Positions 2,492-19,483 are shown, counted from the first letter of the stretch. The stretch: 32,000 nt of DNA from Candidatus Saccharimonadota bacterium (GCA_020160975.1 JAIUPJ010000001.1:450001-482000), one strand, 5' to 3'. A program made the numbers and translations. The notes: generated from the letters alone by a model not told the origin.

Positions 2492-2767
2492 TTACGCTAC
2501 CCGTCTCTTCGGAACGTTCGCACCAATTCCACCCATATCAACACCAAACTCATCGTCAATCTGTGCATACTGGTGGAATTTCTTTCCAAGGAGAGCTATT
2601 CGTTCTCGGTAATTCTGTTCGTCGCCAAGTCGCTCCTCTCCCCCCACAACTGGCAGCCCAGCGGCATCAATCGTGCGGACGGGCAATCGTTTCCCTTCGT
2701 CGCCCACATGAACGAACTGACCAATCTTTGGCACTTCTTCGATACTCTTTGGTCGCATTACTGGCAT
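2492..2767 (-). CDS. Hypothetical 88-91-aa protein inside the nrd operon (no Cys)
   Basis: ORF-track 91 aa (MPVMRPKSIEEVPKIGQFVHVGDEGKRLPV...). The more likely start is the second ATG (2758-2756), which overlaps the upstream stop as TAATG and suggests translational coupling. No family recognised. Confidence 0.4.
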   Translation of the reverse strand: MPVMRPKSIEEVPKIGQFVHVGDEGKRLPVRTIDAAGLPVVGGEERLGDEQNYRERIALLGKKFHQYAQIDDEFGVDMGGIGANVPKRRVA

Positions 2768-2931
2768 CCCTCACACATCGTGAGATCTGCTGGATCGATT
2801 GGCGCGGTTGCCACACCTCGCGAGCGGGCCTCAGCATCGGCTGTCGCCTGCACTTCTTTCATCGCTAAATCAATTGCCGCTAGTTTTTCTTCGAGTGTCA
2901 TTTCATCATTTAGGATTGCGCTTGCGTTCAT
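2758..2931 (-). CDS. 57-aa protein ending in a C-terminal CxxC (..PADLTMCEGCQ)
   Basis: Too short for the ORF track. ATG at 2931-2929 is preceded by GGGGGA. It reads MNASAILNDEMTLEEKLAAIDLAMKEVQATADAEARSRGVATAPIDPADLTMCEGCQ*. Its stop overlaps the start of the next ORF. Confidence 0.45.
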   Translation of the reverse strand: MNASAILNDEMTLEEKLAAIDLAMKEVQATADAEARSRGVATAPIDPADLTMCEGCQ

Positions 2932-2945
2932 GTTGGTCCCCCTTA

Positions 2946-3026
2946 TTATTTATCATCTGTTAGATTTACGTTACATTCGCTGCAGTTCATACAGCACTCA
3001 CAGCTACAGTTGCATTTCTTATCCAT
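2946..3026 (-). CDS. 26-aa cysteine-rich micropeptide directly downstream of nrdA
   Basis: ATG at 3026-3024 lies 11 nt after the nrdA stop (3038-3040), with GGAG 7 nt upstream. It reads MDKKCNCSCECCMNCSECNVNLTDDK*, with 7 Cys in 26 aa. It has the same CNC-type Cys spacing as the 607-708 peptide. Confidence 0.4.
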   Translation of the reverse strand: MDKKCNCSCECCMNCSECNVNLTDDK

Positions 3027-3037
3027 CTGTCATCTCC

Positions 3038-5446: not shown

Positions 5447-5579
5447 AAATCCTATTCCTTTTTGTTATAGTTGCCTTATTCGACACAACACCTCCCCAGG
5501 TTCATGCAAGAAAAATCGTCCACTAGCGTGGCGAACTAGTTACAAAACCTCCTTGCAAATGTGTCTATTTGTTTGAACT

Positions 5580-5633
5580 ACTACATATGTAGTGTCTGCA
5601 CATGACTATAAGCGCTATATATAGCTATTTCAA
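5580..5633 (-). promoter_or_regulatory. nrdA promoter with two NrdR-box-like palindromes
   Basis: On the minus strand: -35 TTGAAA (rc of 5628-5633), a 17-nt spacer, and -10 TATAGT (rc of 5605-5610). Palindrome GCTATATATAGC (5614-5625) fills the spacer. Palindrome ACTACATATGTAGT (5580-5593) sits just downstream of the -10. Centres are 33 bp apart. Both resemble the NrdR box consensus acaCwAtATaTwGtgt. Confidence 0.6.
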
Positions 5634-5721
5634 GTCATTTTTTTCATTTTGGTCATGTTTTTTTCACCACACATCTTTTCACCTCTTGTGAAGACTATCT
5701 AGCGCTGATTGTAACTTTTAC

Positions 5722-5739
5722 TACGCTATATATAGCGTA
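5722..5739. promoter_or_regulatory. 18-bp perfect palindrome TACGCTATATATAGCGTA (third NrdR-box-like site)
   Basis: Perfect inverted repeat with the same CTATATATAG core as the 5614-5625 box. It lies about 85 bp upstream of the + ORF at 5822. Confidence 0.35.
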
Positions 5740-5821
5740 TATATTATTTATGGTTGTCCAAACTTAGACAAACTCTCTTAATGAACTTCAACGGCAATAT
5801 CTGGCACACGAAGGAGCTACA

Positions 5822-6100
5822 ATGAACCCATGGCTTGCCGCGTACCTTGGCGCGCACATAACCGCAACGATCGCCGTCCTGACAGCATGGAACTACTACC
5901 TGGCAACCTCAAAGTTGCATCCCACTAGGCCTGGTCGATCGCTCTGGAGGTTCGTCGCAGTAGTACTCACACCAGTCTTCCTCGTGGCCACTATCGGCTT
6001 CCTCTGGGCTCTCAATCTTTTCTTCGAGATCTGGGACAAGGGAGTCAAGAACGGCTTTCGGGCGAACAGAAATGAAATGCGACGTGCTATGCGCCTTTAG
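5822..6100 (+). CDS. Small membrane protein, two predicted TM helices
   Basis: 92-aa ORF. RBS GAAGGAG lies 5 nt upstream. Two hydrophobic stretches (AAYLGAHITATIAVLTAW, FVAVVLTPVFLVATIGFLWAL). A structured terminator follows. Confidence 0.5.
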   Translation: MNPWLAAYLGAHITATIAVLTAWNYYLATSKLHPTRPGRSLWRFVAVVLTPVFLVATIGFLWALNLFFEIWDKGVKNGFRANRNEMRRAMRL

Positions 6101-6180
6101 GCTCACCTCGGAAACAGACTCGCCGATGAGGTTCAATTCTCATCAGCTTGAGCTCCGTCGGTGAGCCTGTTTCTTTTCTC
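6099..6180 (+). terminator. Multi-stem hairpin terminator
   Basis: Outer stem AGGCTCACC (6099-6107) pairs with GGTGAGCCT (6160-6168). Inner hairpin GATGAG/CTCATC. Followed by GTTTCTTTTCTC. Confidence 0.45.
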
Positions 6181-6209
6181 CCCACAGAAATTTCTAATAG
6201 CAAGAATAG

Positions 6210-6229
6210 CAAGGGTGCAACCCTTAACA
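6210..6229. repeat. REP-like hairpin, left copy
   Basis: GCAAGGGTGCAACCCTTAAC; 6-bp stem AAGGGT/ACCCTT. Confidence 0.75.
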
Positions 6230-6240
6230 GATGAGATAAC

Positions 6241-6849
6241 TTATCTATTTGATAGTAAGCCTACTAATTCAGATGCAACTTTTCTTATGTTTTTATCTGC
6301 ATACTCAGCAACAAACTGCCGATATTGCTCGGGTCTCATCTCACCCGCCAAATCATTGCGCACCCAATCATTGTCTCCGGAGCCCACATAGTCTCGATAA
6401 CTTGACCATCTATACGTTTCATACTTCTGTGGATTCAGATGTATGTATCGAGTGATATGCGCCAGATACGCTTCGTTGTATATCCACGATGCTCGATATT
6501 GACTCTGGAACACATGCCCCTTAGACCGATATTTTTTGTTGTAATACATTGAATACCGCGTGGACACAGATTTCATGTAGCCCTGCATTGCCTGCTCATC
6601 CATCTCTTGATACAACAACAGATGAAAGTGTGTGCCCATCAGACAATACGAAACAATTTCAACATCATACTTTGGATACTCCCGCCCTTTCTCTGCTGAT
6701 TCACAGCTGCTCATATGCTCCTGGATAAGTGTCAAAAAGTATTCACGATCCTCGCTATCGCCAAACAGCTTTCTTTCTCCCGATGCACGATTATATACAT
6801 GATAAAAAGCCGGTGCTCTATATTGCTTTACGACATGCTTTGTTGGCAT
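6241..6849 (-). CDS. REP-associated tyrosine transposase (RayT; IS200/IS605-like Y1 HUH family)
   Basis: 202 aa. N-terminal YHVYNRASGERKLF, HUH motif in CLMGTHFHLLLYQ, and the catalytic-Tyr helix AHITRYIHLNPQK. Confidence 0.8.
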   Translation of the reverse strand: MPTKHVVKQYRAPAFYHVYNRASGERKLFGDSEDREYFLTLIQEHMSSCESAEKGREYPKYDVEIVSYCLMGTHFHLLLYQEMDEQAMQGYMKSVSTRYSMYYNKKYRSKGHVFQSQYRASWIYNEAYLAHITRYIHLNPQKYETYRWSSYRDYVGSGDNDWVRNDLAGEMRPEQYRQFVAEYADKNIRKVASELVGLLSNR

Positions 6850-6879
6850 GAAATCATAATATGCTAAGTTATATCATCC

Positions 6880-6899
6880 GTTAAGGGTTGCACCCTTGC
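6880..6899. repeat. REP-like hairpin, right copy (inverted)
   Basis: GTTAAGGGTTGCACCCTTGC, the exact reverse complement of 6210-6229. Confidence 0.75.
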
Positions 6900-6920
6900 A
6901 TATTGTATAATGGTGAAAGT

Positions 6921-7667
6921 ATGACGATGACAAATATTATTTCGATCAAAAATTTCCGGATGCAGTTTGGGAAAGCGACGGTTATCAAGGATTTATCTTT
7001 CGATGTGAAGAGGGGTGAGACGTTTGGCTTTCTGGGCAGCAATGGCTCTGGCAAAACCACTACCATTCGCGCCCTACTAGGCATTTATCAGCCGACTAGC
7101 GGCGATCTGCTCATCGACGGCAAGCCCTACACTGTTTCGGGCGATATCAAGCTCGGCTACCTCCCTGAAGAGCGTGGTCTCTACAAGAAAGAGTCGGTAC
7201 TCGACATCATGACCTACTTTGGCCAGCTCAAAGGCATGAGCCGCGCCGATGCACGCAAAGCCTCGCTTGCCTACCTGCGACGCGTCAAACTTGAGGACAA
7301 AGCCACGACGCGGCTCGACAAGCTCTCTGGCGGCCAACAGCAAAAGATCCAGCTTGGCATCACCATCATGGACGACCCCGAACTGCTCATTCTCGACGAG
7401 CCAACCAAGGGCTTTGATCCGGTCAACCGCAAGCTCCTGATGGATATCATTGAAGAGCATCAGGCTAAAGGCGCCACGGTAGTCATGGTGACACACCAAA
7501 TGGAAGAAGTTGAACGTCTCTGTGACCGGATCATCCTACTGAAAGACGGCAAGGCTCATGCGTATGGCACCATCGCAGAAGTAAAGAAGAAGTTTGGCAA
7601 CAAATCTCTCGATGATATCTTCCTCAAAGTCTACGGTGATGAAAACGCTACAGAGGAGGAGGACTAA
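6921..7667 (+). CDS. ABC transporter ATP-binding protein (ABC-2/NatA-like)
   Basis: Walker A GSNGSGKTT, signature LSGGQQQK, Walker B LLILDEP. I prefer the ATG at 6921 (MTMTNIISIKNF) to the track's non-ATG start at 6888, which lies inside the REP hairpin. Confidence 0.9.
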   Translation: MTMTNIISIKNFRMQFGKATVIKDLSFDVKRGETFGFLGSNGSGKTTTIRALLGIYQPTSGDLLIDGKPYTVSGDIKLGYLPEERGLYKKESVLDIMTYFGQLKGMSRADARKASLAYLRRVKLEDKATTRLDKLSGGQQQKIQLGITIMDDPELLILDEPTKGFDPVNRKLLMDIIEEHQAKGATVVMVTHQMEEVERLCDRIILLKDGKAHAYGTIAEVKKKFGNKSLDDIFLKVYGDENATEEED

Positions 7668-7668
7668 C

Positions 7669-8874
7669 ATGCACAATCTTGGAACAGTGATTCGCTTTGA
7701 GATCACTCGCGCACTCAAGAAAAAATCGTTTTGGATTATGGCGCTGGGCTTTCCGATTATGCTGGCAGCAATTTTCGGCATCGTCTTTTTGTCAAACAAA
7801 ACGACCGACCAGGCTGTCAAAGACCTCGAGAAACAGAAGTTCTCCCTCCAAGTCACCGACGAATCAACATTGGTCAATCCTGCACTCCTCACCGCTGTAA
7901 AAGCAACAACAATCACTAACAAGCAACAAGGTATCGACAATGTAAAAAACGGCACAGTAGACGGCTATATTTACTACCCCGCCGACCTCACCAAGCAACC
8001 GATCGAGGTCTATGGCAAAGATGTCGGCATGTTTGACAATGGTCGCTATGAAGGTGTCGCAAGAGCATTGCTACTCAACTCTGTCCAATCGACAGTCAGC
8101 CCGCAGGTCAGCTCGGTAATCCAGGGCAATACCCCGACCAATCTCACAACCTACCGTGGCAGCGAAGTGTACGATCCGCTGAAACAGATGATCATACCGG
8201 GTATCTTCCTGGTGCTGTTCTATATGCTTATCGCCTTCTTTGGAAATCAAATGCTCGTCAGCACGACTGAGGAGAAAGAAAATCGCGTCATCGAAATGAT
8301 TCTCACGACCATCGAAGCTCGCACCTTGATTATCGGCAAGATCATCTCCCTGATTAGCCTCGCATTTTTGCAGGGGCTAGTCATTATTGTACCGGCACTG
8401 GTGGGATACCTACTGTTCCACGAGCAACTCAGCCTGCCGTCATTTGACCTCACCTCACTCCCAGTCGATTGGGGACGTATCGGAGTCGGCGCGCTGATCT
8501 TTGCGACGAGCTTTATCCTTTTCACAGGACTTTTGGTACTGATTGGGTCGTCGGTGCCGACCGCCAAAGAAGCCGGGGGATTCATTGGCATCATCATGAT
8601 GCTGATCTTTGGCCCACTGTACGCAGCGCCGCTATTTATCTCACAGCCAGACAGCCCGTTCGTGCACTTCCTCAGCCTCTTTCCATTCACGGCGCCGATC
8701 CCACTGCTACTGAGAAACGCCGTTGGCAATTTACAGAGCTGGGAGATCATGCTCGCTATCCCTATCATCCTCGTTAGCGCCGTCATCGTGCTCAACCTCG
8801 CCGTGCGCGTCTTCCGCTTTGGCGCACTCGAATACAGCCGCAAGCTGAGTTTGAAAGAGATTTTTGGGAAGTAA
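7669..8874 (+). CDS. ABC-2 type transporter permease (NatB-like)
   Basis: ATG at 7669 is 1 nt after the ATPase stop (MHNLGTVIRFEITRALKKKSFW). One N-terminal TM, a large loop, then a C-terminal multi-TM bundle typical of ABC-2 permeases. The track's 7594 start overlaps the ATPase and is unlikely. Confidence 0.8.
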   Translation: MHNLGTVIRFEITRALKKKSFWIMALGFPIMLAAIFGIVFLSNKTTDQAVKDLEKQKFSLQVTDESTLVNPALLTAVKATTITNKQQGIDNVKNGTVDGYIYYPADLTKQPIEVYGKDVGMFDNGRYEGVARALLLNSVQSTVSPQVSSVIQGNTPTNLTTYRGSEVYDPLKQMIIPGIFLVLFYMLIAFFGNQMLVSTTEEKENRVIEMILTTIEARTLIIGKIISLISLAFLQGLVIIVPALVGYLLFHEQLSLPSFDLTSLPVDWGRIGVGALIFATSFILFTGLLVLIGSSVPTAKEAGGFIGIIMMLIFGPLYAAPLFISQPDSPFVHFLSLFPFTAPIPLLLRNAVGNLQSWEIMLAIPIILVSAVIVLNLAVRVFRFGALEYSRKLSLKEIFGK

Positions 8875-8972: not shown

Positions 8973-9575
8973 ATGGCAAAAACCACACGTCCCGTCGACA
9001 CCTTCACGGTGCTCGTCGACAGGCTCCCGTTCAGCTGCAGCTACGAGCTGTTCTGCGTGGGTCTCGCCGAGGCCACCATCGGCGGACGGACCTGGCTCAA
9101 CGACCGAGTCGAGCGCGGGAAGGAGAAGCAGGACAGCACCTATGCTGGCCTCATCTTCGATCCGACCGATTCCCTCGGCGGACCGATTGCCGCCATCAAC
9201 CTCGGCAGCAGCGACACGAGTCGGCTGGTGAACGCCGCCGGCAAGGTCGACTGGATGCAGCTGCATCCGGACGTCGACTTCGACCAGGCCTTCACCGAGA
9301 TGCCCTGGCTGATCGGCTCGGGGCAGTTCCTCTACGGGCACGCCACCACACGCTGCGGCTTCCCGGCCGCCGGCTCAGGGCTCAGCGCCAAGGGCGACCG
9401 TCGCATCATGAATGTGATGCTGGAGGTCCTCGCCGACACCGTTCGGCCCGGCATGGTCGAGGCTATGACCGGGCTTCGCGACAACGGCGCCAAGTGGCTC
9501 GATGGTGAGCCTCGGCCCGAGTATGCTGAGATGGCCGACATCTGCCAGGGCTGGCAGACCGTCACGGTCAGCTGA
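8973..9575 (+). CDS. Hypothetical 200-aa protein, strongly GC-rich (compositionally foreign)
   Basis: ATG is preceded by GAAAGGG. Codon third positions are almost all G/C in this frame. The other long ORFs piled on the same interval are Arg/Pro-rich artefacts. No family recognised. Confidence 0.6.
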   Translation: MAKTTRPVDTFTVLVDRLPFSCSYELFCVGLAEATIGGRTWLNDRVERGKEKQDSTYAGLIFDPTDSLGGPIAAINLGSSDTSRLVNAAGKVDWMQLHPDVDFDQAFTEMPWLIGSGQFLYGHATTRCGFPAAGSGLSAKGDRRIMNVMLEVLADTVRPGMVEAMTGLRDNGAKWLDGEPRPEYAEMADICQGWQTVTVS

Positions 9576-9598
9576 CACTCGCACCCGTCCCTACCAAG

Positions 9599-9626
9599 CA
9601 AGGCCGCCCTTCACGGGGCGGCCTTG
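9599..9626 (+). terminator. GC hairpin after the GC-rich gene
   Basis: CAAGGCCGCCC (9599-9609) pairs with GGGCGGCCTTG (9616-9626), an 11-bp stem with a 6-nt loop. There is no T-tract, as in the I-shaped hairpins common in high-GC bacteria. Confidence 0.5.
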
Positions 9627-9756
9627 TCATATACTACTCAGAGAGCGGGATTATCGCTCACAAGCTCGCTCCTCCGTTTGCTTAGAAAAATGAGCAAGCT
9701 AATTTTTCTGCACTACACTACGTCGACCTCCTCGGTTACTCGTCTTACAGGCGAGC

Positions 9757-9788
9757 CCGGGAGTTCGTATCACGCCTATTCTCCGCCA
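9757..9788 (+). pseudogene. Decayed 3' fragment of a tRNA-Ser (T-arm to CCA), non-functional
   Basis: CCGGGAGTTCGTATCACGCCTATTCTCCGCCA compares with the intact gene's CCGGGAGTTCGAATCTCCCTCTCTCCGCCA. The T-stem can no longer pair, and no 5' half lies upstream. Confidence 0.6.
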
Positions 9789-9996
9789 CGAAAAAAGACC
9801 CTAGAAAAGGGGTCTTTTTTCGTGGCGCGATTCTACGCCCGCGCTCGAACCTATTTTAGCGCAAAAGTCTGAAAGGCGGGCGGGGCGACGCCCCGCCCAG
9901 CTGAAAAACCCACCTCCTTTTGATTTCTTTTTTAGAGACTTCCCCCGCCGAGATTTTTTAGGGAGCTGAAAAAGGGGTGGTTTTTTCGGGGTTTGC
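9757..9996. repeat. Left arm of the ~240-bp inverted repeat
   Basis: The plus strand here aligns with the reverse complement of 13270-13505 along its full length, with only scattered substitutions and small indels. It contains an 18-bp-stem hairpin CGCCACGAAAAAAGACCC...GGGTCTTTTTTCGTGGCG and a GGGCGGGGCG.CGCCCCGCCC hairpin. Confidence 0.85.
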
Positions 9997-10267
9997 GTTT
10001 TTATGTAGCGTATATATCGACACACACGCTATCTCATTTTTCTATTCTCACAAATATCACTTTTGTTTCTCTGTTTTTTACCTTTTGCTATGTACTTTTC
10101 TTCTTTTTCTTTTCTCCCTCTCTTTCTATATAAATATAGAGAAGAATAGATGTATCGAGCGGTGGTTTAGTATTGGTGGATGCGTAGTTGTTGGTATGTT
10201 GAGTTGTATTGCTTGTGGTTTGAATTGGTTTAGTGATGTGGTTAAGTGTGAGTAGATAGGAGTAGCT

Positions 10268-11119
10268 ATGAGTGAAGTTGTAGATAAAGTTAAGTATCGA
10301 AGACCGTTGAATAAGCAACAGCTACGAACACTGTTTGTTTTATATTGGTATCGGTTCTGTACGAGTAAGCAGATTGCAATCAGTCTGAAACGGTCAGACC
10401 CGAAAAGCATACAGAACAAGCTCAAGGTTCTGGAAGATCAGGAGTTGATTGGCAAACGTTATGACAAAACCTACAAGCTAGCAGGTCGCCCTGCCGAGTA
10501 TTACATAACGCCAAAGGGTGCAAGAGTACTAGAAAAGGTACAGCCAGACACAACGAACCTGTGGGCAACCAAGAGTTTATACAAAAACAAGACGGTGTCT
10601 AACGAGTTTCTGAAGCATACCGTTACTGTCGTGGATGTGGCACAACGTTTGAGAATACTGTATGGCAACAGGCCGTGGATTCTGCCAAAGAGTTACATAG
10701 CAAAATACAGTTTCTATCCAAAATGGGCACCGGACTTGCATTTCAAGATACCAGCACGGAGCGAGACGCCGACAAAGCACTATTTCGTTGATATATGGGA
10801 CGGCACGAAACCATTCTTCGTCAGCGTTAGGAAAACCAGAAACTACTCCAACTTCAAGGAGAATGGTGATTGGCAAGAAGATGAACCGTACCCTGCAATC
10901 CTCGCGGTATGCGATGATGCCTACACCCAAAAGAAACTCAGCAGACAGATGAAACGGATTCTTGATGATTCGTGGGACGATGATTTAGTATTTGCTACGA
11001 CAACGCGGAAACAGCTCGATGAGGCAACGAAACCAACGGATAAGATATGGCTCCGAGTTAGGCTTGATGATGAGGCGGAACTTGTGAGCCTCAAAGGCCT
11101 TATTACGTATGATGCCTAG
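10268..11119 (+). CDS. Replication-relaxation family-like wHTH protein
   Basis: 283 aa, RBS AGGAG. The N-terminus LNKQQLRTLFVLYWYRFCTSKQIAISL...KLKVLEDQELIGKRY...YYITPKGARVLEK matches the pattern I recall for plasmid replication-relaxation (PF13814-type) proteins. Not verified by search. Confidence 0.5.
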   Translation: MSEVVDKVKYRRPLNKQQLRTLFVLYWYRFCTSKQIAISLKRSDPKSIQNKLKVLEDQELIGKRYDKTYKLAGRPAEYYITPKGARVLEKVQPDTTNLWATKSLYKNKTVSNEFLKHTVTVVDVAQRLRILYGNRPWILPKSYIAKYSFYPKWAPDLHFKIPARSETPTKHYFVDIWDGTKPFFVSVRKTRNYSNFKENGDWQEDEPYPAILAVCDDAYTQKKLSRQMKRILDDSWDDDLVFATTTRKQLDEATKPTDKIWLRVRLDDEAELVSLKGLITYDA

Positions 11120-11138
11120 TTGCACCGCTTGCTCTAAC

Positions 11139-11167
11139 TTGACATAATGAAACAAATGTGCTAGATT
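11139..11167 (+). promoter_or_regulatory. Promoter for the 474-aa ORF
   Basis: TTGACA (11139-11144), 17 nt spacer, TAGATT (11162-11167) with TGC immediately upstream (extended -10). Confidence 0.45.
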
Positions 11168-11202
11168 GAATATAGTTAATTTCAAAACAAAAAACCACCA
11201 CA

Positions 11203-12627
11203 ATGAGCGAAACACTACCTTCACAGCAAAATGAAACTCAAGCCTGGAAACAAGAGCTTCCTCTTCACCGTGAGGTAGCCGGTACACTTCAACCCGGAGA
11301 AACCCTTGCACTTATAGGGTCGTTTGCTCAATCAAGCCTTGAGGCGCGTAAAGAAGAGAGTGAGACTGGTGAATTAAGCGACAGCGATTTCCGCGAAGAA
11401 CAAGTTGTTCATCTTGCGGCACTTCAACAATTATCTACATTAGAGCTTGGTGAGGGACAGACAGTAAACGATGTCATCTATGATCGCCAGAAACAACTAG
11501 AAAGTGCCTTGAGTGATATTGGAGATGATGCTCTTCGTACCGCAGAGAAACACAGATTGAGTGTACAGCTTAAAGGAGTAAAGCTCCTCGATAGTACCTA
11601 CTTGAACGTCATAGATAGTGTCGATAGTCTCGCTACGGCTACTGGAGATGGTAACAAGCGTAATCCTCGAAGTCGCGCAATCGCAATTAATCAGCTGATA
11701 GAACAACACAACGAGCAAGTTTCTCCTAAATCTGAAACAATCGCAGATAGCCCTGAAATGCGTGAGGCACAAGAACGAATCAATGCTCGCTATGAAGAAC
11801 AAGCAAAACAACCACAGCCAACCGAAACAGTCGATGACGCTCGCCAAAAAGTAGCCGAGGTTTTTGGCGATACAGGTGAAAAAGAGCGACAGGCTCTTAT
11901 TGGTGAGGTTGCTCAAGCCGCAAAAGGTGCGACTCGTATTTACACCGATATACCAAAAGATATAATGCTAAAGTCTAATTCTGGCGACTTTCGACCCATT
12001 GACGGCTTTAACTCATTTGGTGATGGCTTACCGCAAGAAAGCCGCCATGTCAGAGAAAAGTTAGAATATGGCGGTTCAGCCGAAGCTTTCCTGTTTGAGC
12101 CCGACACAACCACTCGCTACAAGACAGTTACAAAAACCATCGAAACTGGTGGACGCTTCAAGAAGAAGACTGAACAGGTTCAAGAACAAGTTCCTGATGG
12201 TGAAGTACCGACAATGGTCATGAACCCTGCAACAGGTCAACAAGAACCTGGTGTTAAGGTTGCATATCAATTCAACGGCAATAATCGTAGAGATGGTGCT
12301 CAGACGGCATATTACGAAGGTCCCAAATACACTACGGAAAGCGGACGTGTCGGAAACCAATTATGGATAGAGGCGACCCTGCCAAAATCGGTAGCAGACA
12401 GATTAAAACAAGAAGTAACTAGTAACCCTGAAGTTGCTCATGAGTTTGCAAAAACGCTTGCACTGAACAATGGTATTACGGAACAAGCGTGGAACAATGG
12501 CGTTCAGCCACCTTTCGATAAAGTTCCAAGCGACTGGACTATGGCAGTTGTTGACCTGCAAAAAGATACACAGTACGGTGATGTGCGACACAATGTAGTC
12601 AGTCGGCAGGCTGTAAAGACCCGATAA
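11203..12627 (+). CDS. Hypothetical 474-aa acidic protein (orphan)
   Basis: Long ORF with ordinary codon usage. The N-terminal half is E/Q/D-rich and helical. The C-terminal half is mixed (..YQFNGNNRRDGAQTAYYEGPKYTTESGRVGNQLWIEATLPK..). No motif recognised. Confidence 0.6.
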   Translation: MSETLPSQQNETQAWKQELPLHREVAGTLQPGETLALIGSFAQSSLEARKEESETGELSDSDFREEQVVHLAALQQLSTLELGEGQTVNDVIYDRQKQLESALSDIGDDALRTAEKHRLSVQLKGVKLLDSTYLNVIDSVDSLATATGDGNKRNPRSRAIAINQLIEQHNEQVSPKSETIADSPEMREAQERINARYEEQAKQPQPTETVDDARQKVAEVFGDTGEKERQALIGEVAQAAKGATRIYTDIPKDIMLKSNSGDFRPIDGFNSFGDGLPQESRHVREKLEYGGSAEAFLFEPDTTTRYKTVTKTIETGGRFKKKTEQVQEQVPDGEVPTMVMNPATGQQEPGVKVAYQFNGNNRRDGAQTAYYEGPKYTTESGRVGNQLWIEATLPKSVADRLKQEVTSNPEVAHEFAKTLALNNGITEQAWNNGVQPPFDKVPSDWTMAVVDLQKDTQYGDVRHNVVSRQAVKTR

Positions 12628-12629
12628 TT

Positions 12630-13247
12630 ATGTCTCAAAACCCCGAAACCCACACTTACGACTATGACACCGACTCCAAAGAAGCTGGGTGGGACTCTCC
12701 AGAACGCGTACAAAAATTAGTTGAACCACGAGTTGCCGCTGGTTCAAGAGTCCTGGATATTGGTATCGGTACAGGGTTAGCTGTTAGTGGCTACGCCGAC
12801 AAAGGTGCAACGGTTATCGGACTCGACCACGACCAAGCTATGCTTGATACCGCCCAAACAGTTGTTGGTGAACATGGCTCGCTCTGCCTAGCAGACATTA
12901 ATGGTCAGTTACCTATCAGCGATCTTGAGGGTTCTGTCGATGTCGCTCAAGCGGTGGGCGTACTGGAATTTGCCAAGAATTTACGGAGTGTGTTCGGTCA
13001 GGTCTACGGCAGCCTCAAAGAGGACGGCGTGTTTGCGTTTACTTCAGAGCTTATCGACGGTATACAGACAACCGAGCCAGAAACACACTACGATGACATA
13101 GATGTAACGGTATACCGCCACACACCTGATGAGATAGCAGATTTACTTGAACAAGCTGGATTTCAGCTAGTACATGCAGAGAGTTACGACGGCTATGAAC
13201 GTGGCGGCTCGGCTGTTCCTTACGGTATATTTTTGGCACAAAAATAG
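12630..13247 (+). CDS. Class I SAM-dependent methyltransferase
   Basis: 205 aa. It starts 2 nt after the previous stop. Motif I is RVLDIGIGTGLAV, followed by the acidic loop VIGLDHDQ. It looks like a small-molecule/Methyltransf_11-type enzyme rather than an obvious DNA methyltransferase. Confidence 0.75.
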   Translation: MSQNPETHTYDYDTDSKEAGWDSPERVQKLVEPRVAAGSRVLDIGIGTGLAVSGYADKGATVIGLDHDQAMLDTAQTVVGEHGSLCLADINGQLPISDLEGSVDVAQAVGVLEFAKNLRSVFGQVYGSLKEDGVFAFTSELIDGIQTTEPETHYDDIDVTVYRHTPDEIADLLEQAGFQLVHAESYDGYERGGSAVPYGIFLAQK

Positions 13248-13269
13248 ATGATTCCACCGCTTGCGGTGG

Positions 13270-13505
13270 GCAAACCCCGAAAAACCACCCCTTTTTCCGC
13301 TTCTAAAAAATCTCGGCGGGGGAAATCTCTAAAAAATAGATCAAAAGGAGGTGGGTTTTTCGGCTAGGCGGGGCGACGCCCCGTCCGCCTTTCAAGCTTT
13401 TGCGCTTAAATAGGTTCGAGCGCGGGCGTAGAATCGCGCCACGAAAAAAGACCCCTTTTCTAGGGTCTTTTTTCGTGGCGGAGAGAGGGAGATTCGAACT
13501 CCCGG
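13270..13505. repeat. Right arm of the ~240-bp inverted repeat (overlaps the 3' third of tRNA-Ser(CGA))
   Basis: Its reverse complement aligns with 9757-9996. The outer 30 nt are the real T-arm/acceptor end of the tRNA gene. Confidence 0.85.
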
Positions 13506-13567
13506 TGCAGTTTTAGCCACACACCGCTTTTCGAGAGCGGCACCTTCAACCACTCAGACATCTCTCC
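13476..13567 (-). tRNA. tRNA-Ser (anticodon CGA), CCA encoded
   Basis: Minus strand: GGAGAGATGTCTGAGTGGTTGAAGGTGCCGCTCTCGAAAAGCGGTGTGTGGCTAAAACTGCACCGGGAGTTCGAATCTCCCTCTCTCCGCCA. Acceptor GGAGAGA/TCTCTCC, anticodon stem CCGCT/AGCGG with loop CTCGAAA, a long variable arm, and T-arm GGGAG-TTCGAAT-CTCCC. Confidence 0.9.
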
Positions 13568-13725
13568 GTCTCATTCTATTTTAATACATCTCGAAGTTAT
13601 TGAGGTGATCTACCGACACGTTGTGCCGCAACCACAGCGCTCCGCTGTGCCACTGGCACATGCTCGCTATTTCCGCTAGAGACTATTCTCGACAGCAAGC
13701 TGTCTGCGAGTAGCCTTTCGCTTCA

Positions 13726-13738
13726 CAGACATCTCTCC
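13726..13738 (-). repeat. 13-nt exact copy of the tRNA-Ser 5' end (GGAGAGATGTCTG)
   Basis: Identical to 13555-13567, in direct orientation 171 bp upstream of the real tRNA 5' end. A weaker resemblance continues for about 12 more nt. Confidence 0.6.
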
Positions 13739-13756
13739 ACTGCGTAAATTATCCAA

Positions 13757-15352
13757 CTACCTCGCTACATCGCGTGGAGTAGTGGCCGTTACGACACTGA
13801 ACTCTTGATTAGTACAATCTCTTGTCTTAGTAGCGTCTGCTTCCGGCTTCTTTTTGTCAAAAAAGGTAAATGTCACACTATCGCGAGTCGGCTTGCCCTC
13901 AAACGCACCATGGAATCGTAGCGTATCTAACCTCGTCGCACGGCACTGGTCATCAAAGCGTAGGATGCCGTATGATTGTTCGCTAGACTGAGCATCCGGC
14001 GGTGTAGCATCCCCGTAGCCAAATATTCCCCCACCAGTAAATGTACCGGTCACGATATGAGTGCCGTTGACTTGATCCTTATGCAAGTGGCCAGAGTTAG
14101 TGATAACAGCTTGTAGCTTCTCGGCCGCTGCTGGTTCGTGGGAGATCCCTAGATCGATTTCCTGGCCAGCAAACGTCCGGTTAAATAGCTCCCACACTGG
14201 CTTCTGCTTGACGGCATTGTCTTTGTTGTCGTCTCCATACCAACGCATGAAGTCATTGACGCCAGCAATTTTTAGGTCGCCAAAATGAGCCACCTGAAAT
14301 CTGTCTCTACCTGGCTGCAGCACGACCACGTTTGGAATAGCCATCAAGCGATCGATAAGCGCCGTATCATCAGGCGAACTACGGTCATGATTACCCAATA
14401 CGATGATATAAGGAACACCAAGCTTTGCGATATTATCAAAAATGCCGGCAAGCTCCGCCTCCTGAACTCGTCCCATGTTAAGCAAATCGCCGCTGTCTAT
14501 CACCGCCGTAATGCCCTCTTCTTTTATAACCTGCTCGAGCGAGGAGTACATATTTACCCCATGAATATCAGACACAAGCAGAAATGAGGGCCCCTCACTA
14601 GACTGCTCCTTCTCCATAGGAGTAGCCACCTTAGCAAGCGCTTTTTGAAGCTCAAGCCACGAAGCAAAATAGGGCTGGATCTGTTGAGAGCGTTTATTAA
14701 CTCCGTCAAGGACCAGTTCTCCTTGTTTTAAGAGTGAACCTGCAAGCCCATCAAGTTCAATCTTTTGGTATGGCCGAGTATACGTTGTAGCCGCGCTTAC
14801 TCCCTGGTAGGAAATTGCCAGTCCCATTGACGCCACGAGTGCGATTGCTGCCTCGCGAGATTTACGTCGTGCCACTGCCGAGTAAGCACCCATCGTGAGC
14901 AGCATTGCCAGTGCTGACCCTGTTGCATAGCGCTCGCCTAGTTGCAATGCCACCTGTTCAAGGCTCGCTCTCATCTGCTCCTCGCTTACGACGAGTCCCT
15001 GCGTGCCACCGCGAACGTATGAGTCTACTATCTCTGGCCGCAATGTAGGCTCGACAGTGACAGCAGGCGATGGCACCTTCGAGTCGAACGTAAGGTACAC
15101 ACCACCCAAGATCGATGATGCTTCCACCGTATCGAACCGCGTGTAAGAAAGCGAGACATCAGCTGCATAGTTTGCAGTCTGGATATGCGCAGGGTACACA
15201 TGAGTAGCAGTGACTCCTCCGATGTGCGCAGGCAGCACACCGAGTGCTGCAACACCGAGAAATCGCGTTAGCTTATGTGCACTGTGTGGCTTTTCAACCG
15301 GTTTTTGCCAGTCTTCAAGCATTGGCGCGGCCTCATAAGATTTTGTATCCAT
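13757..15352 (-). CDS. Membrane-anchored metallophosphoesterase (calcineurin-like)
   Basis: 531 aa. TM segments in the N-terminal half (FLGVAALGVLPAHIGGV; ALAMLLTMGAYSAV; AAIALVASMGLAISY). The C-terminal half has LLVSDIHG, DSGDLLN, LGNHD and GHLH motifs. Confidence 0.75.
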   Translation of the reverse strand: MDTKSYEAAPMLEDWQKPVEKPHSAHKLTRFLGVAALGVLPAHIGGVTATHVYPAHIQTANYAADVSLSYTRFDTVEASSILGGVYLTFDSKVPSPAVTVEPTLRPEIVDSYVRGGTQGLVVSEEQMRASLEQVALQLGERYATGSALAMLLTMGAYSAVARRKSREAAIALVASMGLAISYQGVSAATTYTRPYQKIELDGLAGSLLKQGELVLDGVNKRSQQIQPYFASWLELQKALAKVATPMEKEQSSEGPSFLLVSDIHGVNMYSSLEQVIKEEGITAVIDSGDLLNMGRVQEAELAGIFDNIAKLGVPYIIVLGNHDRSSPDDTALIDRLMAIPNVVVLQPGRDRFQVAHFGDLKIAGVNDFMRWYGDDNKDNAVKQKPVWELFNRTFAGQEIDLGISHEPAAAEKLQAVITNSGHLHKDQVNGTHIVTGTFTGGGIFGYGDATPPDAQSSEQSYGILRFDDQCRATRLDTLRFHGAFEGKPTRDSVTFTFFDKKKPEADATKTRDCTNQEFSVVTATTPRDVAR

Positions 15353-15413
15353 CAGTAGTTATAATTATACAACATATCACAGAAAGTGCAAAGTATAATA
15401 TGATAGAAGTACT

Positions 15414-15812
15414 ATGGAAGACTCAATTTTTACAAAGATCATCAAGGGTGAGGTTCCTTGCCACAAGATTTATGAAGATGACAAGACAATCGCTTTCCTC
15501 GATATCGAGCCGGCAGTCCACGGGGATACACTAGTTGTACCCAAGGTGCAAGTTGATCAATTTAACGACCTCGATGATGAAGACTACTTCGCAGTCTGGA
15601 AAACAGTCAAAAAAGTTGCCAATAATCACCAACAAAGGCTCGGTACTGATCGAATTGGCGTTGTTATTAAGGGTGTTGATGTCCCGCATGCGCATGTTCA
15701 CATCGAACCATTTAACGTTGGCCAACACCTTAGCCCAGGCAAAAATGAACTAGAAAGGCCTACTCAAGAAGAGCTCGCGGCTCTTGCCGAGAAGCTTCGT
15801 TTCGATGATTAA
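15414..15812 (+). CDS. HIT family (histidine triad) nucleotide hydrolase
   Basis: 132 aa. N-terminal IFTKIIKGEVPCHKIYEDDKTIAFLDI and the triad HAHVHIEP. Confidence 0.85.
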   Translation: MEDSIFTKIIKGEVPCHKIYEDDKTIAFLDIEPAVHGDTLVVPKVQVDQFNDLDDEDYFAVWKTVKKVANNHQQRLGTDRIGVVIKGVDVPHAHVHIEPFNVGQHLSPGKNELERPTQEELAALAEKLRFDD

Positions 15813-16260
15813 GCTCATTGCCATCGGCAAAAAGCATGAGCCATGGGTACATGAGGGCATCAAACGCTACCAAAAGCGCCTACGAGCACCGTGGAGCCTA
15901 GAATGGGCGCTTTTGCCACACAGCAGTCTAGAGGGTGCTAGGGCCCGCCAGGACGAGTCTGAGCGCATACTTTCAAAGCTCAGCCCCTCCGACTATGTTG
16001 TGTTGCTCGACGAACGCGGCAAATTACTCGATTCCCCTGTTCTCGCTCGTACCCTGCATCAACAGATTGAAACCTCAAGGAGCATTGTGATTATCATTGG
16101 CGGCGCCTACGGCGTCTCCGACGAACTCCAGCAGCGCGCCGACCTCGTATGGTCACTCTCCCCTGCCGTCTTTCCCCACCAACTCGTCCGCCTCATCCTG
16201 GCCGAGCAGCTCTACCGCTCGCAAGAGATTGTAGCGGGGCGACCGTATCATCATGAATAA
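15805..16260 (+). CDS. rlmH: 23S rRNA (pseudouridine1915-N3)-methyltransferase RlmH (SPOUT)
   Basis: ATG at 15805 (MIKLIAIGKKHEPW) overlaps the HIT stop by 8 nt. The C-terminus ..FPHQLVRLILAEQLYRSQEIVAGRPYHHE is typical of RlmH. The track's start at 15784 is a non-ATG extension. Confidence 0.85.
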   Translation: MIKLIAIGKKHEPWVHEGIKRYQKRLRAPWSLEWALLPHSSLEGARARQDESERILSKLSPSDYVVLLDERGKLLDSPVLARTLHQQIETSRSIVIIIGGAYGVSDELQQRADLVWSLSPAVFPHQLVRLILAEQLYRSQEIVAGRPYHHE

Positions 16261-16361
16261 TAAGGAGCTCTGAATTCTAAATTCTAATACATTGACACTC
16301 TCTTGACATTTCATAAAGTTTATGCTAAGTTAGAGAAAGTAAAACATAATCAAAAATAAAT

Positions 16362-16709
16362 ATGCTATCAACCATCTTCCAATCATGTATGACCGTTATC
16401 AGCCTGTTGACCGCCCTTGGTGTCTTTATGCACGACGGACGCGTTGACAGGGCCACGCTCACTGCGGTCAATCCACGCTTTGATCAGGCGCATCTGTCAG
16501 CGACAACCTACTTGCGCTTCAAAGATTTCATCGACACCGATGCCCATACTCACCCCGACCACAATGCCGGCAAATCGCTTTTCTCAGGTTTTCAGTATCA
16601 GTCCCCTAGCATCGCACCCCGCCGCGACTCACATCACAAGCAGCTCAAGTCATTTCTCGAGGGGAGTCGCCATGCTTTCGACAACACAAATCTCCCCGTA
16701 CTCGATTAG
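16362..16709 (+). CDS. Hypothetical small protein with N-terminal hydrophobic segment
   Basis: 115 aa. CMTVISLLTALGVFM is a signal/anchor-like segment. The rest is His-rich and polar. TTGACA-type promoter elements lie at ~16293-16310. Confidence 0.45.
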   Translation: MLSTIFQSCMTVISLLTALGVFMHDGRVDRATLTAVNPRFDQAHLSATTYLRFKDFIDTDAHTHPDHNAGKSLFSGFQYQSPSIAPRRDSHHKQLKSFLEGSRHAFDNTNLPVLD

Positions 16710-16743
16710 CAAGAGAATATCTTAGAACTTAGTTTTGTTATGA

Positions 16744-19308
16744 TTATCCGTTGTCGCTGCCGATAACCGTCAGCTCGTCTTGCAAACGCCCGACAAGTGC
16801 CTGTTTGGCCGTCAGCTGCTCACGTGACTCCTCGACCAGGGCTGCGGGCGCTTTGGCAACATAGCTTTCGTTGCTAAGGCGCGCCTCGAGGGTTGCCACT
16901 TCGCGACGAGCATCAGCCAGTCGTCGCTCAAGGTTCGACTGGTGTTCATATAGCGTCTCGGCATTTACATCGAGCCAGGCATCACGACCACTGGCAGCGA
17001 GCCGCAATCCGCGCGGCTGATCGGCATGCTCGATGCCGCGGAGTCGTGCTAGCTTGATGATAAGTTCTTGGTTGTCTGCCACTAGTGAATCATCCAAATA
17101 CACAAGCGTGTACGTTTCGTTGCCTGGCAATTCACTCGCCACATAGCGCGCCTCGGTGACAAGTCGTTTGAGCCGCCCGAACTCTGCCGCTGCGATCTCG
17201 CTACAGTCCTTTTGTTCAGGCCAGTGGTCGCCTGCCAGCAGATTGGTTTTCCAGTTTAGTGACTGCCAAATTGTCTCGGTCACAAACGGCGCAAACGGAT
17301 GCGCCAGACGCAAAATCGTCTCGAGCACATAGGCGCTCATATCGGTATGCTGCTCGGTTTTACTAACCTCGACATACCAGTCGGCCACATCATCCCATAG
17401 CGCATGGTATATCGTCTCCACCGCCTCGGCGAAGTTGTAGTCTGCCATCTGTCGCTCCAGCTTGGCTGTCGCGAGATTTAGCCGGTGGACAATCCAGTGG
17501 TCGGCCAGAGTTTTTGGTGCAGGATCAGCCGCTGGAGTTGATTCGCCGATACTCGCCTCTATAAATCGTGCCACGTTCCACAATTTGTTGCAAAAATTGC
17601 GACCCGCAATCACCTTGCTGGTGCTAAATGCCTGACTCTGCGCAGCACTGCGGCTGGCCACAATCCCCATGCGGAGCGCGTCTGACCCGTATTCTGAGAC
17701 CAGTTCCATCGGGTTAATTACATTTCCCTTGCTCTTGCTCATTTTTTGGTTATGCTCGTCATTAACCATGCCGTGCAAATACACGTCTTTAAACGGCACT
17801 TTGCCAGTACGGTACAGACCCAGAACAATCATTCGCCCTACCCACTGGTAAATAATGTCGTATCCTGTCTCCATGACGCTAGCAGGATAATACTTGGCGA
17901 GTTCACTCTGCGGATCGAGTGCGTCAGTCGTAATAAATGGCCACTGACCGCTGCTGAACCAGGTATCAAAGGTATCTTCTTCACGTCTATATGTTGTACC
18001 ATTTACAATGATTTCTTTTTCATTCACACGATCGTCAAATATCCATTCTTCGGGGTTGGCTGTACTCTGAAACGCTGGAATCGGAATACCCCATGGAATC
18101 TGTCGGCTGAGATTCCAGTCGCGGATGTTTTCGTAATATTGAATCAGTAGCTTGCCGCGGTTTTCGGGTACGAAACGGATCTCCCCCGCCTCAATTGCCT
18201 TGATCGCTGGGGCTACAAGTGGCTTCATACTGAGGAACCACTGGTCTTTGACAAGTGGTTCGATAACCGTGCCGCACTTGTAGCAGTGCCCTACTGCGTG
18301 CTCAATATCGGTTTCTCCTCGGCGCAGCTCCTCAATTTCGAGCGCAGCTAGGATTTTTTTGCGGGCATCAAGCGCTGGCAAGCCAAGATACGGATGACCG
18401 ACATTGATCATCGTCCCGTCGTAGCCAATCACCTGGATGCGTTCAAGGCTGTGGCGCTCTCCTATCTCAAAATCATTTGGGTCGTGTGCTGGAGTAATCT
18501 TCACCGCCCCTGTGCCGTAGTTCATATCAACGTATTCATCTGCAATCACCGGAATCTCACGTCCAGTCAGCGGCAGTTGGACATTGGTACCGATCAAGGT
18601 TTTGTAACGCTCGTCATTTGGATTGACAGCCACGGCAGTGTCACCGAGCAATGTTTCGGGACGGGTGGTCGCCACCACGATCTCCCCTACTTTGTCGAGT
18701 GTCGGATAGGCAATCTTATAGAGCTTGCTCTTCTCGGTCTTGTGGACGACTTCGATATCAGAAAAGCTCGTCTGGTGCTTGGTGCAATAATTAACCATCC
18801 GCTCACCTCGGTATACGAGCCCATCTTCCCACAGCTTTTTAAATGTATCGTAGACTGTGGTAATAACTTTTTCATCAAGAGTGAAGACGAGGTTGCTCCA
18901 GCTCGCCCCAGCGCCGAGCGCACGCAGTTGCAGCTCCATATTCCCCCGCTGACGGTCGACAAAATCCCACACTTGGGCATATAGCTGCTCCCGCGTATAG
19001 TCAAAACGAGTTTTGCCCTGTTTTTCCAGCTCCTTTTCATACACTACCCAGGTTTCAAAGCCCGCATGGTCTGCCCCTGGCAAATAGACAGCATCGTATC
19101 CCTTTAACCGATGAAAGCGCACCAAAATATCTTCGAGATCTGCCATCAATGCGTGCCCAGCATGCAGATTTCCATTGGCATTTGGTGGCGGCATGACGAT
19201 AGCATAGGGCTGCCCCTGCCCTTTCGGATCAAACACCCTACTCTGTTCCCAGAGCGCGTAAATGTTAGGTTCGTAGTCGTTTGGCGTGTAGGCTTTTGCT
19301 AGGTTCAT
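16744..19308 (-). CDS. valS: Valine--tRNA ligase
   Basis: HIGH-type motif PNANGNLHAGH, KMSKS present, and a C-terminal coiled coil. I prefer the ATG at 19308 (MNLAKAYTPNDYEP...). The track's 29-codon extension to 19395 is hydrophobic and has no RBS. Confidence 0.93.
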   Translation of the reverse strand: MNLAKAYTPNDYEPNIYALWEQSRVFDPKGQGQPYAIVMPPPNANGNLHAGHALMADLEDILVRFHRLKGYDAVYLPGADHAGFETWVVYEKELEKQGKTRFDYTREQLYAQVWDFVDRQRGNMELQLRALGAGASWSNLVFTLDEKVITTVYDTFKKLWEDGLVYRGERMVNYCTKHQTSFSDIEVVHKTEKSKLYKIAYPTLDKVGEIVVATTRPETLLGDTAVAVNPNDERYKTLIGTNVQLPLTGREIPVIADEYVDMNYGTGAVKITPAHDPNDFEIGERHSLERIQVIGYDGTMINVGHPYLGLPALDARKKILAALEIEELRRGETDIEHAVGHCYKCGTVIEPLVKDQWFLSMKPLVAPAIKAIEAGEIRFVPENRGKLLIQYYENIRDWNLSRQIPWGIPIPAFQSTANPEEWIFDDRVNEKEIIVNGTTYRREEDTFDTWFSSGQWPFITTDALDPQSELAKYYPASVMETGYDIIYQWVGRMIVLGLYRTGKVPFKDVYLHGMVNDEHNQKMSKSKGNVINPMELVSEYGSDALRMGIVASRSAAQSQAFSTSKVIAGRNFCNKLWNVARFIEASIGESTPAADPAPKTLADHWIVHRLNLATAKLERQMADYNFAEAVETIYHALWDDVADWYVEVSKTEQHTDMSAYVLETILRLAHPFAPFVTETIWQSLNWKTNLLAGDHWPEQKDCSEIAAAEFGRLKRLVTEARYVASELPGNETYTLVYLDDSLVADNQELIIKLARLRGIEHADQPRGLRLAASGRDAWLDVNAETLYEHQSNLERRLADARREVATLEARLSNESYVAKAPAALVEESREQLTAKQALVGRLQDELTVIGSDNG

Positions 19309-19483
19309 GGGAATGGAATCGTCCTCTAATTTGTTCTCTATTGAATAGAGTAATTTTTCACGCGAAAAGAGCACGAAAATAGCAATGGTTTTCACGTGAA
19401 AACCCTTACCTCTGTTGTACCTCTGTTTTCTCGCGTGTTTGTGTTGTCTCTAGTATAGCATAGATTGGGTGTATAATAGATGC

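Follow-up and report, generated by a model that had tools for sequence, protein, structure and literature searches.

The closest described counterparts of the locus reported here are integrative and mobilizable elements (IMEs) of streptococci in which a serine recombinase occurs together with a relaxase of the PF13814/MOBC type (Coluzzi et al., 2017; PMC5357655). Like the elements considered below, they are small and integrated, and combine a recombinase module with a relaxase-family gene and an adjacent conserved non-coding site. Also common to both are the absence of mating-pore genes of their own, variable cargo, and an exchangeable integration module, which may be either a large serine recombinase (LSR) or a DDE transposase. 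Hardly anything is known of the mobile elements carried by Saccharibacteria and other bacteria of the candidate phyla radiation (CPR). A 2025 survey of CPR genomes found type IV secretion systems (T4SS) in most of them and few relaxases, with MOBC as the commonest class; the T4SS of CPR bacteria are thought to be mostly non-conjugative, and the survey left open whether these organisms conjugate.

Here we analyse a 32-kb stretch of DNA, referred to as the window, from a Candidatus Saccharibacteria bacterium (Patescibacteria), in which a 3.75-kb insert adjoins the gene for tRNA-Ser(CGA). The placement of the host follows from the names given to proteins identical or similar to those of the window. 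Related loci that were compared with it carry L-numbers as labels. The insert is quite probably a decayed, recombinase-less member of a family of Saccharibacteria integrative elements that insert at the CCA end of tRNA-Ser genes. This family is probably mobilizable and apparently undescribed before; literature searches on Saccharibacteria elements with serine recombinases returned no account of it. It differs from the streptococcal IMEs in its CPR host, in its target, the tRNA-Ser CCA end, and in two pairs of 130-240-bp inverted repeats that partition the element. Furthermore, the copy in the window lacks a recombinase, and transfer of the Saccharibacteria elements is putative.

The unit at tRNA-Ser(CGA) and its recombinase-bearing relatives

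An earlier note on this DNA had described a unit bounded by inverted repeats of about 240 bp. The inverted repeat is genuine and lies well outside chance expectation: positions 9757-9996 align with 13505-13270 at 92.1% identity over 240 columns (blastn, E = 5e-92). A repeat search of the window recovered its main part as 9780-9961 / 13303-13484 (182 nt, 95%), with further pieces at 9955-9993 / 13272-13310 and 9757-9771 / 13491-13505. The right arm starts, as had been stated, inside an intact tRNA-Ser(CGA) gene on the minus strand (13476-13567; ARAGORN; Rfam RF00005, 49.2 bits), the attachment-site gene of the unit. The outermost part of the left arm (9757-9788, plus strand) is a decayed partial copy of the tRNA-Ser 3' end, from T-arm to CCA, that points inward and is identical in strain L001; in this piece, CCGGGAGTTCGTATCACGCCTATTCTCCGCCA, agreement with the tRNA is exact over the initial 11 nt and the final 9 nt, and the middle is scrambled. 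Next to it, each arm carries a 44-nt palindrome with an 18-bp perfect stem and an 8-nt loop (9784-9827 and 13437-13480), which has the form of a bidirectional terminator. The stem, which includes CGCCA/TGGCG, has four matches in the window versus 0.01 expected. The left palindrome lies at the centre of the longest perfect block shared by the arms (77 nt, 9780-9856), which extends from the CCA end of the tRNA across the hairpin into arm A and takes in 29 nt of the latter. Arm A itself (9823-9996, plus strand) starts with TGGCGCGATTCTACGCCCGCGCTCGAACC, the reverse complement of a pseudo-tRNA 3' end, and such a pseudo-tRNA end would act as the attP-derived half-site in the complete relatives. The inverted right copy of the arm, A' (13270-13441, minus strand), is 92% identical to the left one, and its orthologue is the only arm that L013 has (93%).

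Between the arms lie, all on the plus strand as the earlier note had it, a gene with the Replic_Relax domain (RR; 283 aa, 10268-11119, PF13814), a 474-aa orphan (11203-12627) and a class I S-adenosylmethionine (SAM)-dependent methyltransferase (205 aa, 12630-13247; Pfam Methyltransf_11/23/12/25). No recombinase had been seen in the unit, and tblastn bore this out: no serine recombinase, tyrosine recombinase or IS1595 transposase was found in the unit or elsewhere in the 32-kb window. The earlier note considered a non-canonical element with a hidden enzyme and proposed a search for further copies of the arm in related genomes. Such copies were found, and homologous arms flank RR units in L001, L013, L023, L027, L030, L031, L049-L052, L072, L073 and L092. 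The complete relatives among these loci speak against a hidden enzyme, since L052, L023, L027, L092 and L050/L051 have a canonical LSR. Their order is arm A, AT-rich block, RR, cargo, A', a second arm B, the LSR, B', and tRNA-Ser on the opposite strand. The LSR is 544-587 aa long and has Resolvase, Recombinase and Zn_ribbon_recom domains; its best NCBIfam matches are CcrB and XisF, though far below the cut-offs of these families. L052 contains the gene set of the window plus the LSR, with 58% identity in the orphan and 88% in the methyltransferase. In this locus, arm A (30-172) and the AT-rich block are followed by RR (455-1300), the orphan (2670-4055), the methyltransferase (4105-4719), A' (4745-4911), B (4903-5037), the LSR (5139-6797), B' (6572-6707) and tRNA-Ser(GGA).

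In every complete locus the reading frame of the LSR remains open across B' and, antisense, across the entire tRNA gene. Integration thus defines the C-terminal tail of the enzyme (motif LAER.GFEP, from the tRNA acceptor/T-arm), and arm B is the 3' end of the LSR gene itself, copied in inverted orientation. The open frame occupies 11720-13354 in L023, 11024-12682 in L027, 6388-8112 in L051 and 5166-6833 in L052. Outside these genomes, two IMG/VR contigs (L090, 7-354; L091, 63-410) end in the N-terminal 116 residues of a recombinase that is 66% identical to the LSR of the elements. Apart from these two N-terminal fragments at contig ends, a scan of viral contigs with the LSR found no more, and scans of viral contigs with the core of the AT-rich block and with the RR alignment gave no match.

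Three types of junction occur in the complete elements. On the tRNA side (attR), the tRNA ending in CTCCGCCA stands to the left of a GCCA core and B' to its right. The internal A'/B junction has the pseudo-tRNA end, GAATCGCGCCA, on the left and the same B sequence on the right, and at the far left junction (attL) the same pseudo-tRNA end as at A'/B is followed by a host terminator hairpin. In L023, L027 and L051 the junctions share halves in this manner. The three junctions fit the pattern expected for attR, an intact attP-like site and attL, with an exchange inside GCCA between attP and attB. A complete element comprises, from the host terminator onwards, A, the AT-rich block, RR, variable cargo, A', B, the LSR and B', which encodes the C-terminus of the LSR, and abuts a tRNA-Ser on the opposite strand; the LSR would integrate and excise it. 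If such an element were circularised, B'+A would be the exact inverse of A'+B, and the circle would consist of two unique regions separated by one inverted pair of about 300 bp, with an att core in each copy. Alternatively, B-LSR-B' might be a minimal element in its own right that became inserted between tRNA and A'. This is less favoured, because the three-way relation of the junctions points to one composite and because L092, an extra LSR locus, again had RR and the arms.

In the window, only a 34-nt palindromic spacer separates the CGCCA of the tRNA from the TGGCG that opens A', and the right junction is therefore not a plain attR. The right copy of the 44-nt palindrome sits where complete relatives have arm B-LSR-arm B'. 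Most probably B-LSR-B' was lost and the 34-nt palindrome was left between tRNA and A', which would leave the window element trapped unless an LSR acts in trans. Integration of an LSR element in the wrong orientation at the palindromic core was considered as a source of the inverted tRNA fragment and was rejected, since it would place the tRNA right beside arm A, with no 34-nt spacer between them. Other decayed forms exist. In L022/L053, RR is followed directly by a B' stump and the tRNA, and L033 has truncated arms. With respect to the conserved HIT-SPOUT-ValRS backbone, the segment from RR to tRNA-Ser(CGA) has opposite orientations in L022/L053 and in the window, which suggests that larger rearrangements have taken place around these elements.

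The distribution of the elements argues for their mobility. They reside beside four different tRNA-Ser genes, namely GGA (L050-L052), TGA (L023, L092), CGA (L027, the window, L022/L053) and GCT (L013). The elements of L092 and L027 are 84% identical over 5 kb, yet are found at TGA and CGA genes, respectively. In L051/L052 the flank upstream of the occupied tRNA-Ser(GGA) is syntenic with window positions 29337-31429 (47-76% amino-acid identity). The window's own tRNA-Ser(GGA) (31545-31636, plus strand; ARAGORN) has no arm sequence downstream and thus represents the empty site of the L050/L051/L052 insertions, so that presence/absence variation, which the earlier note suggested looking for at tRNA-Ser(CGA), does occur at this target site. 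In L013, likewise, tRNA-Ser(CGA) and tRNA-Ser(TGA) are empty sites with no arm downstream. A scan for empty sites in genome contigs with the flanking metallophosphoesterase found nothing. Two genomes each have two RR copies. In the 865 kb of Saccharibacteria DNA that was fetched, the arm motif CCGCGCTCGAACCTATTTTAGC occurs solely in RR-element loci; the arm is hence not a generic module downstream of tRNA genes, and the proposed links of the arms to the core genes and of mobile-element DNA to the tRNA-Ser 3' end hold.

Among the closest relatives, the contig of L002 is 100% identical over the shared stretch and strain L001 is 96-98% identical to the window; both have its arrangement and its orientation. 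An rve-family (IS3-like) transposase gene, absent from the window, lies in L001 at 7670-8563 between an ABC-2 permease gene and a 200-aa gene. Three short Logan contigs (L003, L004, L020) contain the core only and end in 30-nt overlaps at the repeat. They were rejected as circles, because the overlaps are inverted, as results when de Bruijn assembly breaks at an inverted repeat. In the closest other species (L013-L015), the region collinear with window 11021-13499 (86.6% identity) comprises the orphan and methyltransferase genes together with the right arm and a tRNA-Ser 3' end; in L013 this tRNA is tRNA-Ser(GCT) and not CGA. L013 has no left arm, and a 31-residue remnant of the RR C-terminus lies just upstream of the orphan. 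This remnant points to RR-orphan-methyltransferase-A'-tRNA as the older arrangement in L013. An 18-nt tRNA-Ser 3' fragment in direct orientation lies another ~60 nt upstream. The left flank of the window unit (9620-9750) aligned to L013 4185-4310 with a local score of 71 and no blastn match; this alignment was not used.

Arm homogenisation and core orientation

Within a genome the two arms are 100% identical in L001, 98% in L092, 96% in L023 and L027, and 92% in the window, often far above the 60-75% identity between species groups. Both L001 arms are 99% identical to the left arm of the window and 92% to its right arm. As the two strains are 96-98% identical overall, the right arm of L001 was overwritten by the left one after the strains split. 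The hairpins, which are identical between the arms in the window, differ in L001, so that the conversion tracts are patchy. A GC hairpin that the earlier note ascribed to each arm is perfect in the left arm only (9879-9898); the right copy has one mismatch, and the structure is not conserved in other species. In L051/L049, the arms are only 65-74% alike, the left one resembling the window and the right one L023, and thus form a mosaic that arose by recombination between elements. The arms undergo gene conversion, and long arms are a feature of the family that is kept similar by this process.

Copy-correction from the right arm would also most simply account for the outer 70 nt of the window arms, which on the left consist of the pseudo-tRNA end and the hairpin, the repeat having spread outward. 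The palindromic spacers of the window (34 nt) and of L013, where a different, imperfect palindrome of 42 nt stands at the matching place, could be collapsed B'/B remnants or native tRNA terminators. An inverted arrangement of tRNA genes occurs in L033, in which tRNA-Ser(TGA) and tRNA-Ser(CGA) face each other as a 169-nt inverted repeat (3696-3864 and 6772-6938). This repeat includes the downstream motif GTACCGTACGGTACATGGCTCCGCCAACAC, which is found twice after each tRNA.

The earlier note also considered an invertible segment. A working switch, in which recombination between the arms flips the 3.3-kb core, could draw on the homogenisation of the L001 arms to 100% and on the 77-nt perfect block of the window, and flipped forms do exist. 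In L031 the RR unit is inverted relative to the LSR (LSR on the minus strand, then B, TGGCG-A, the AT-rich block and RR on the plus strand), and in L033 RR is co-directional with the adjacent tRNA-Ser(CGA). However, RR points toward the tRNA in seven lineages (the window lineage, L013, L023, L027, L050/L051, L052 and L092). Within the window lineage no flip was found among the assemblies of the window, L001 and L002, which could miss a minority isomer. Moreover, L031 and L033 have each lost one arm or part of one and therefore look like old rearrangements, the window contains no invertase, and flipping would change nothing at the arm boundaries, where no promoter faces a gene and the core genes have their own upstream regions. 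A functional switch is thus improbable, although occasional inversion across the arms over evolutionary time is likely, given L031 and the converted arms.

Replic_Relax, the AT-rich block and the cargo

The RR protein matches PF13814 with E = 1.3e-11 (45.4 bits, cutoff 25.3; residues 24-204). The earlier note took it for a winged helix-turn-helix (wHTH) protein, which is correct for the N-terminus and incomplete for the protein. In the AlphaFold2 model (pLDDT 77.8) the wHTH spans residues 16-91, and MarR/PadR/GntR wHTH proteins are the top Foldseek matches of the N-terminal half. After residue 112 the model continues with an alpha-beta-beta-beta-alpha-beta arrangement, and P155, D156, D175 and K181 are invariant. 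The family PF13814 has been assigned to the PD-(D/E)XK nuclease superfamily (PMC3424549), its Pfam name covers plasmid replication proteins, and it corresponds to the MOBC relaxase class in CONJscan terms. Of the MOBC relaxases, which include TraX of pAD1 and MobC of CloDF13, TraX has been studied; it has an N-terminal wHTH and a restriction-endonuclease-like active site, and binds direct repeats 70-120 bp from the nick site. The RR protein of the window shares with this class a profile match above threshold and the N-terminal wHTH, and its PHROG match is labelled 'replication initiation by nicking'. A PDB sequence search with the RR profile returned nothing significant. PADLOC produced no defence-system match for RR or the orphan and a generic match only for the methyltransferase.

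More than 337 RR homologues were found at 64-89% identity, and the few with a source name come from Saccharibacteria or other Patescibacteria. The RR alignment, used to scan metagenomes and the genomes of species, yielded 56 loci. In every locus examined the RR gene is preceded by an AT-rich block, which occupies 9997-10267 (plus strand) in the window, is asymmetric and is a candidate origin of transfer (oriT), replication origin or operator-promoter. An alignment of 49 upstream regions revealed a nearly invariant core, TTTCTTTTCTCCCTCTCTTTCTATATAAATATAGAGAAGAA, containing the 16-nt palindrome TCTATATAAATATAGA, and an upstream box, CCACCGACACCCAAGCTATC. In the window this box lies at ~10005-10036 and the palindrome at 10125-10140; the core consists of a polypyrimidine run and the palindrome, and is followed by a C-poor, GT-rich stretch. 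By its family and its constant company, RR is a candidate MOBC-family nicking enzyme for the AT-rich block. Together, they probably form a nicking module for the transfer or replication of the excised element; RR would nick the excised DNA at the block, which would serve either as part of a relaxase/oriT system or in replication.

An origin-like block next to such a gene might also indicate an integrated small plasmid, with RR as the initiator and the AT-rich block as the origin. Such a plasmid would have entered by recombination downstream of the tRNA, and the LSR would be an unrelated neighbour. The Pfam name and the PHROG label are compatible with this scenario, as are the asymmetric, AT-rich and palindrome-containing block and the short core-only contigs. 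The ends of these contigs are inverted overlaps and not direct ones, however, and thus reflect assembly breaks. In addition, direct repeats would be expected after homologous integration, the collections searched yielded no free plasmid copy, and at least five lineages show the LSR linked to RR units, their junctions sharing halves. We consider a plasmid origin of this kind improbable. Nor is the unit a linear, protein-primed replicon with terminal inverted repeats (TIRs), as none of its three genes has the domains of a family B DNA polymerase or a terminal protein.

RR is not confined to LSR elements. At 16 of the 27 genome loci, and at many metagenome loci, an IS1595-family DDE transposase gene is located directly upstream. 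In L057, L064 and L074, TIRs of 25-38 bp enclose the transposase, the AT-rich block, RR and 4-7 kb of cargo. These IS1595-family transposons (L057, 613-9809; L064, 20-6658; L074, 6706-13428; L078-L089) are the commoner carrier of the AT-rich block and RR. Their cargo includes reverse transcriptases, one of which, in L078, is accompanied by a bAvd-like gene and forms a diversity-generating retroelement. One sample contains an IS1595-type RR element whose right end is joined to its left end with 7 nt between them (L085 1-411 versus L084 6444-6847 and 1528 onward), representing either a circle junction or a tandem copy. Directly after RR, five loci (L031, 1846-2229; L037; L038; L039; L045) encode a protein of 127-141 aa with a CdiA C-terminal toxin-like domain (PF18451).

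The IS1595-type transposons also bear on a further suggestion of the earlier note, a new tRNA-targeting TIR element. It would be self-mobile and target tRNA-Ser by a new mechanism, with RR or the orphan as its enzyme. The long terminal inverted repeats of the unit and the fact that RR, a nuclease-family protein, is always accompanied by a conserved DNA block fit this idea. Nonetheless, it is very improbable. No transposase is present, the unit has no target-site duplication (its flanks are GGCGAGC and TGCAGTT), RR occurs mostly without arms inside IS1595-type transposons that have their own TIRs, and the outer arm ends are explained by the att-site logic of the LSR. The orphan, finally, occurs alone next to ychF in other genomes.

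Homologues of the orphan (43-88% identity) are ordinary chromosomal genes, usually next to ychF, and no RR, arm or tRNA is nearby (L005, L006, L009-L012, L016-L019). The protein has no Pfam, PHROG, NCBIfam or PADLOC family. Its confident AlphaFold model (pLDDT 82) combines a long helical N-terminal half with a beta-rich C-terminal domain; a fold search with the model in PDB and BFVD gave no match. As an ordinary chromosomal gene elsewhere, the orphan is cargo captured from a chromosome and not the recombinase. The methyltransferase, which co-occurs with the orphan in L013, L020 and L052, is cargo as well. It is directly followed by a short GC hairpin, CCACCGCTTGCGGTGG (13254-13269), which is kept in the same three loci and likely is a terminator at the inner edge of the right arm; a promoter/terminator scan of 9500-13800 gave counts at or below shuffled expectation. 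At L005 (3407-7306), a different LSR, 27-29% identical to the tRNA-Ser family, and small open reading frames (ORFs) are located between ychF and the orphan homologue. The stop of this LSR gene overlaps the ychF start, and the locus represents a second LSR island type in Saccharibacteria. The idea that the unit is a vertically inherited chromosomal feature, its arm a generic module after tRNA genes, can be dismissed: close strains share the arrangement, and the right arm, orphan and methyltransferase are collinear with L013, but the confinement of the arm motif to RR-element loci, the four occupied tRNA-Ser genes with syntenic empty sites and the two genomes with two RR copies contradict strictly vertical synteny.

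Several observations weigh against a decayed LSR-borne element with a relaxase-type module. For no member of the family did the assembled contigs contain an excised circle, a B'-A junction outside a chromosome, an attP junction read or a restored attB, and the activity of the LSR on these sites is for this reason a matter of inference. The left pseudo-tRNA end matches at only ~70% and the adjacent hairpin at 100%, so that more than one copy-correction event would be needed. The different palindromic spacers of the window and L013 are not explained by simple loss of the LSR. The fold search with the RR model returned no match to a nuclease fold, such as PD-(D/E)XK. Lastly, since the majority of RR genes lie outside LSR elements and adjoin an IS1595-family transposase, RR could serve a function other than transfer.

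Three neighbouring features complete the picture of these loci. In L092, a T4SS pilin/VirB6 cluster (12085-19764) of seven tandem T4SS_pilin genes, TrbL_3, PrgI and a TraC-like gene is situated 1.3 kb away from the element and comes after tRNA-Ser(TGA), a phosphoribosyltransferase gene and HSP20; arrays of small proteins (family F22) are found in the matching position in L023 and L033. About 3 kb to the left of the window unit, a 202-aa protein (6241-6849, minus strand) matches REP-associated tyrosine transposases (RAYT; NCBIfam NF047646, below cutoff; Pfam Y1_Tnp weak). It is flanked by inverted repeats (6205-6253 / 6853-6904, 50 nt, 88%) and looks RAYT/IS200-like. Between this gene and the unit, a 200-aa ORF (8973-9575, plus strand) lies in a patch with 66.6% G+C (window average ~50%) and is overlapped by long antisense ORFs. 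None of the libraries assigned it to a family. The ORF is conserved in L001, and L006 has a 202-aa gene at the same position after the ABC transporter.

Comparison with known systems

The inverted repeat of the window is best regarded as a family trait of a decayed element and not as evidence for a new recombination mechanism. In this family a canonical LSR and a MOBC-type gene with its conserved site come together in an unusual layout of two inverted-repeat pairs. The family ties the MOBC-type gene and the DNA site beside it, which is strongly conserved, to a defined system of integration at tRNA-Ser genes, and presents LSR att sites, a candidate oriT and tRNA-Ser sites both with and without an element. 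It might also supply parts for genetic tools in Saccharibacteria. A bolder proposal, which must be considered tentative and rather unlikely, is that the intact relatives represent a new class of CPR elements. Their circle would consist of two halves with an attP core in each copy of the inverted pair, would integrate by either core and would flip its halves. RR and the AT-rich block would then be the missing relaxase and oriT with which the ubiquitous chromosomal T4SS of Patescibacteria could move DNA, as the proximity of element and T4SS cluster in L092 might suggest, and the window copy would be non-autonomous and mobilised by an LSR in trans.

A circle of this form would resemble the yeast 2-micron plasmid, which has two unique regions and an inverted pair with recombination sites, and one flipped isomer (L031) is known. 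The enzyme is a serine recombinase, however, and not a tyrosine recombinase such as Flp, no circle was observed in the family, and no evidence was found that flipping serves amplification. With SCCmec (CcrA/B) and the fdxN element (XisF), the family shares the LSR domains and the insertion at the 3' end of a conserved gene that is left intact. It differs from both in that the LSR frame extends across the att site and covers the complete tRNA gene in antisense, and in that an inverted duplicate of the LSR 3' end, arm B, lies upstream of the LSR gene. Genomic islands of tyrosine integrases use the same T-loop-to-CCA target and have a partial tRNA-like copy at their far end. Correspondingly, the pseudo-tRNA end left of arm A in L023, L027, L051 and L092 is a direct repeat of the true end. 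The Saccharibacteria elements use another enzyme class, their tRNA-like piece is highly diverged, and the window adds an inverted partial copy. This inverted copy has a parallel in the border shifts of plastid inverted repeats, which likewise leave a truncated copy of the gene bordering the other arm and whose arms are homogenised by gene conversion. By analogy, a boundary shift of the plastid type would be the likeliest origin of 9757-9827.

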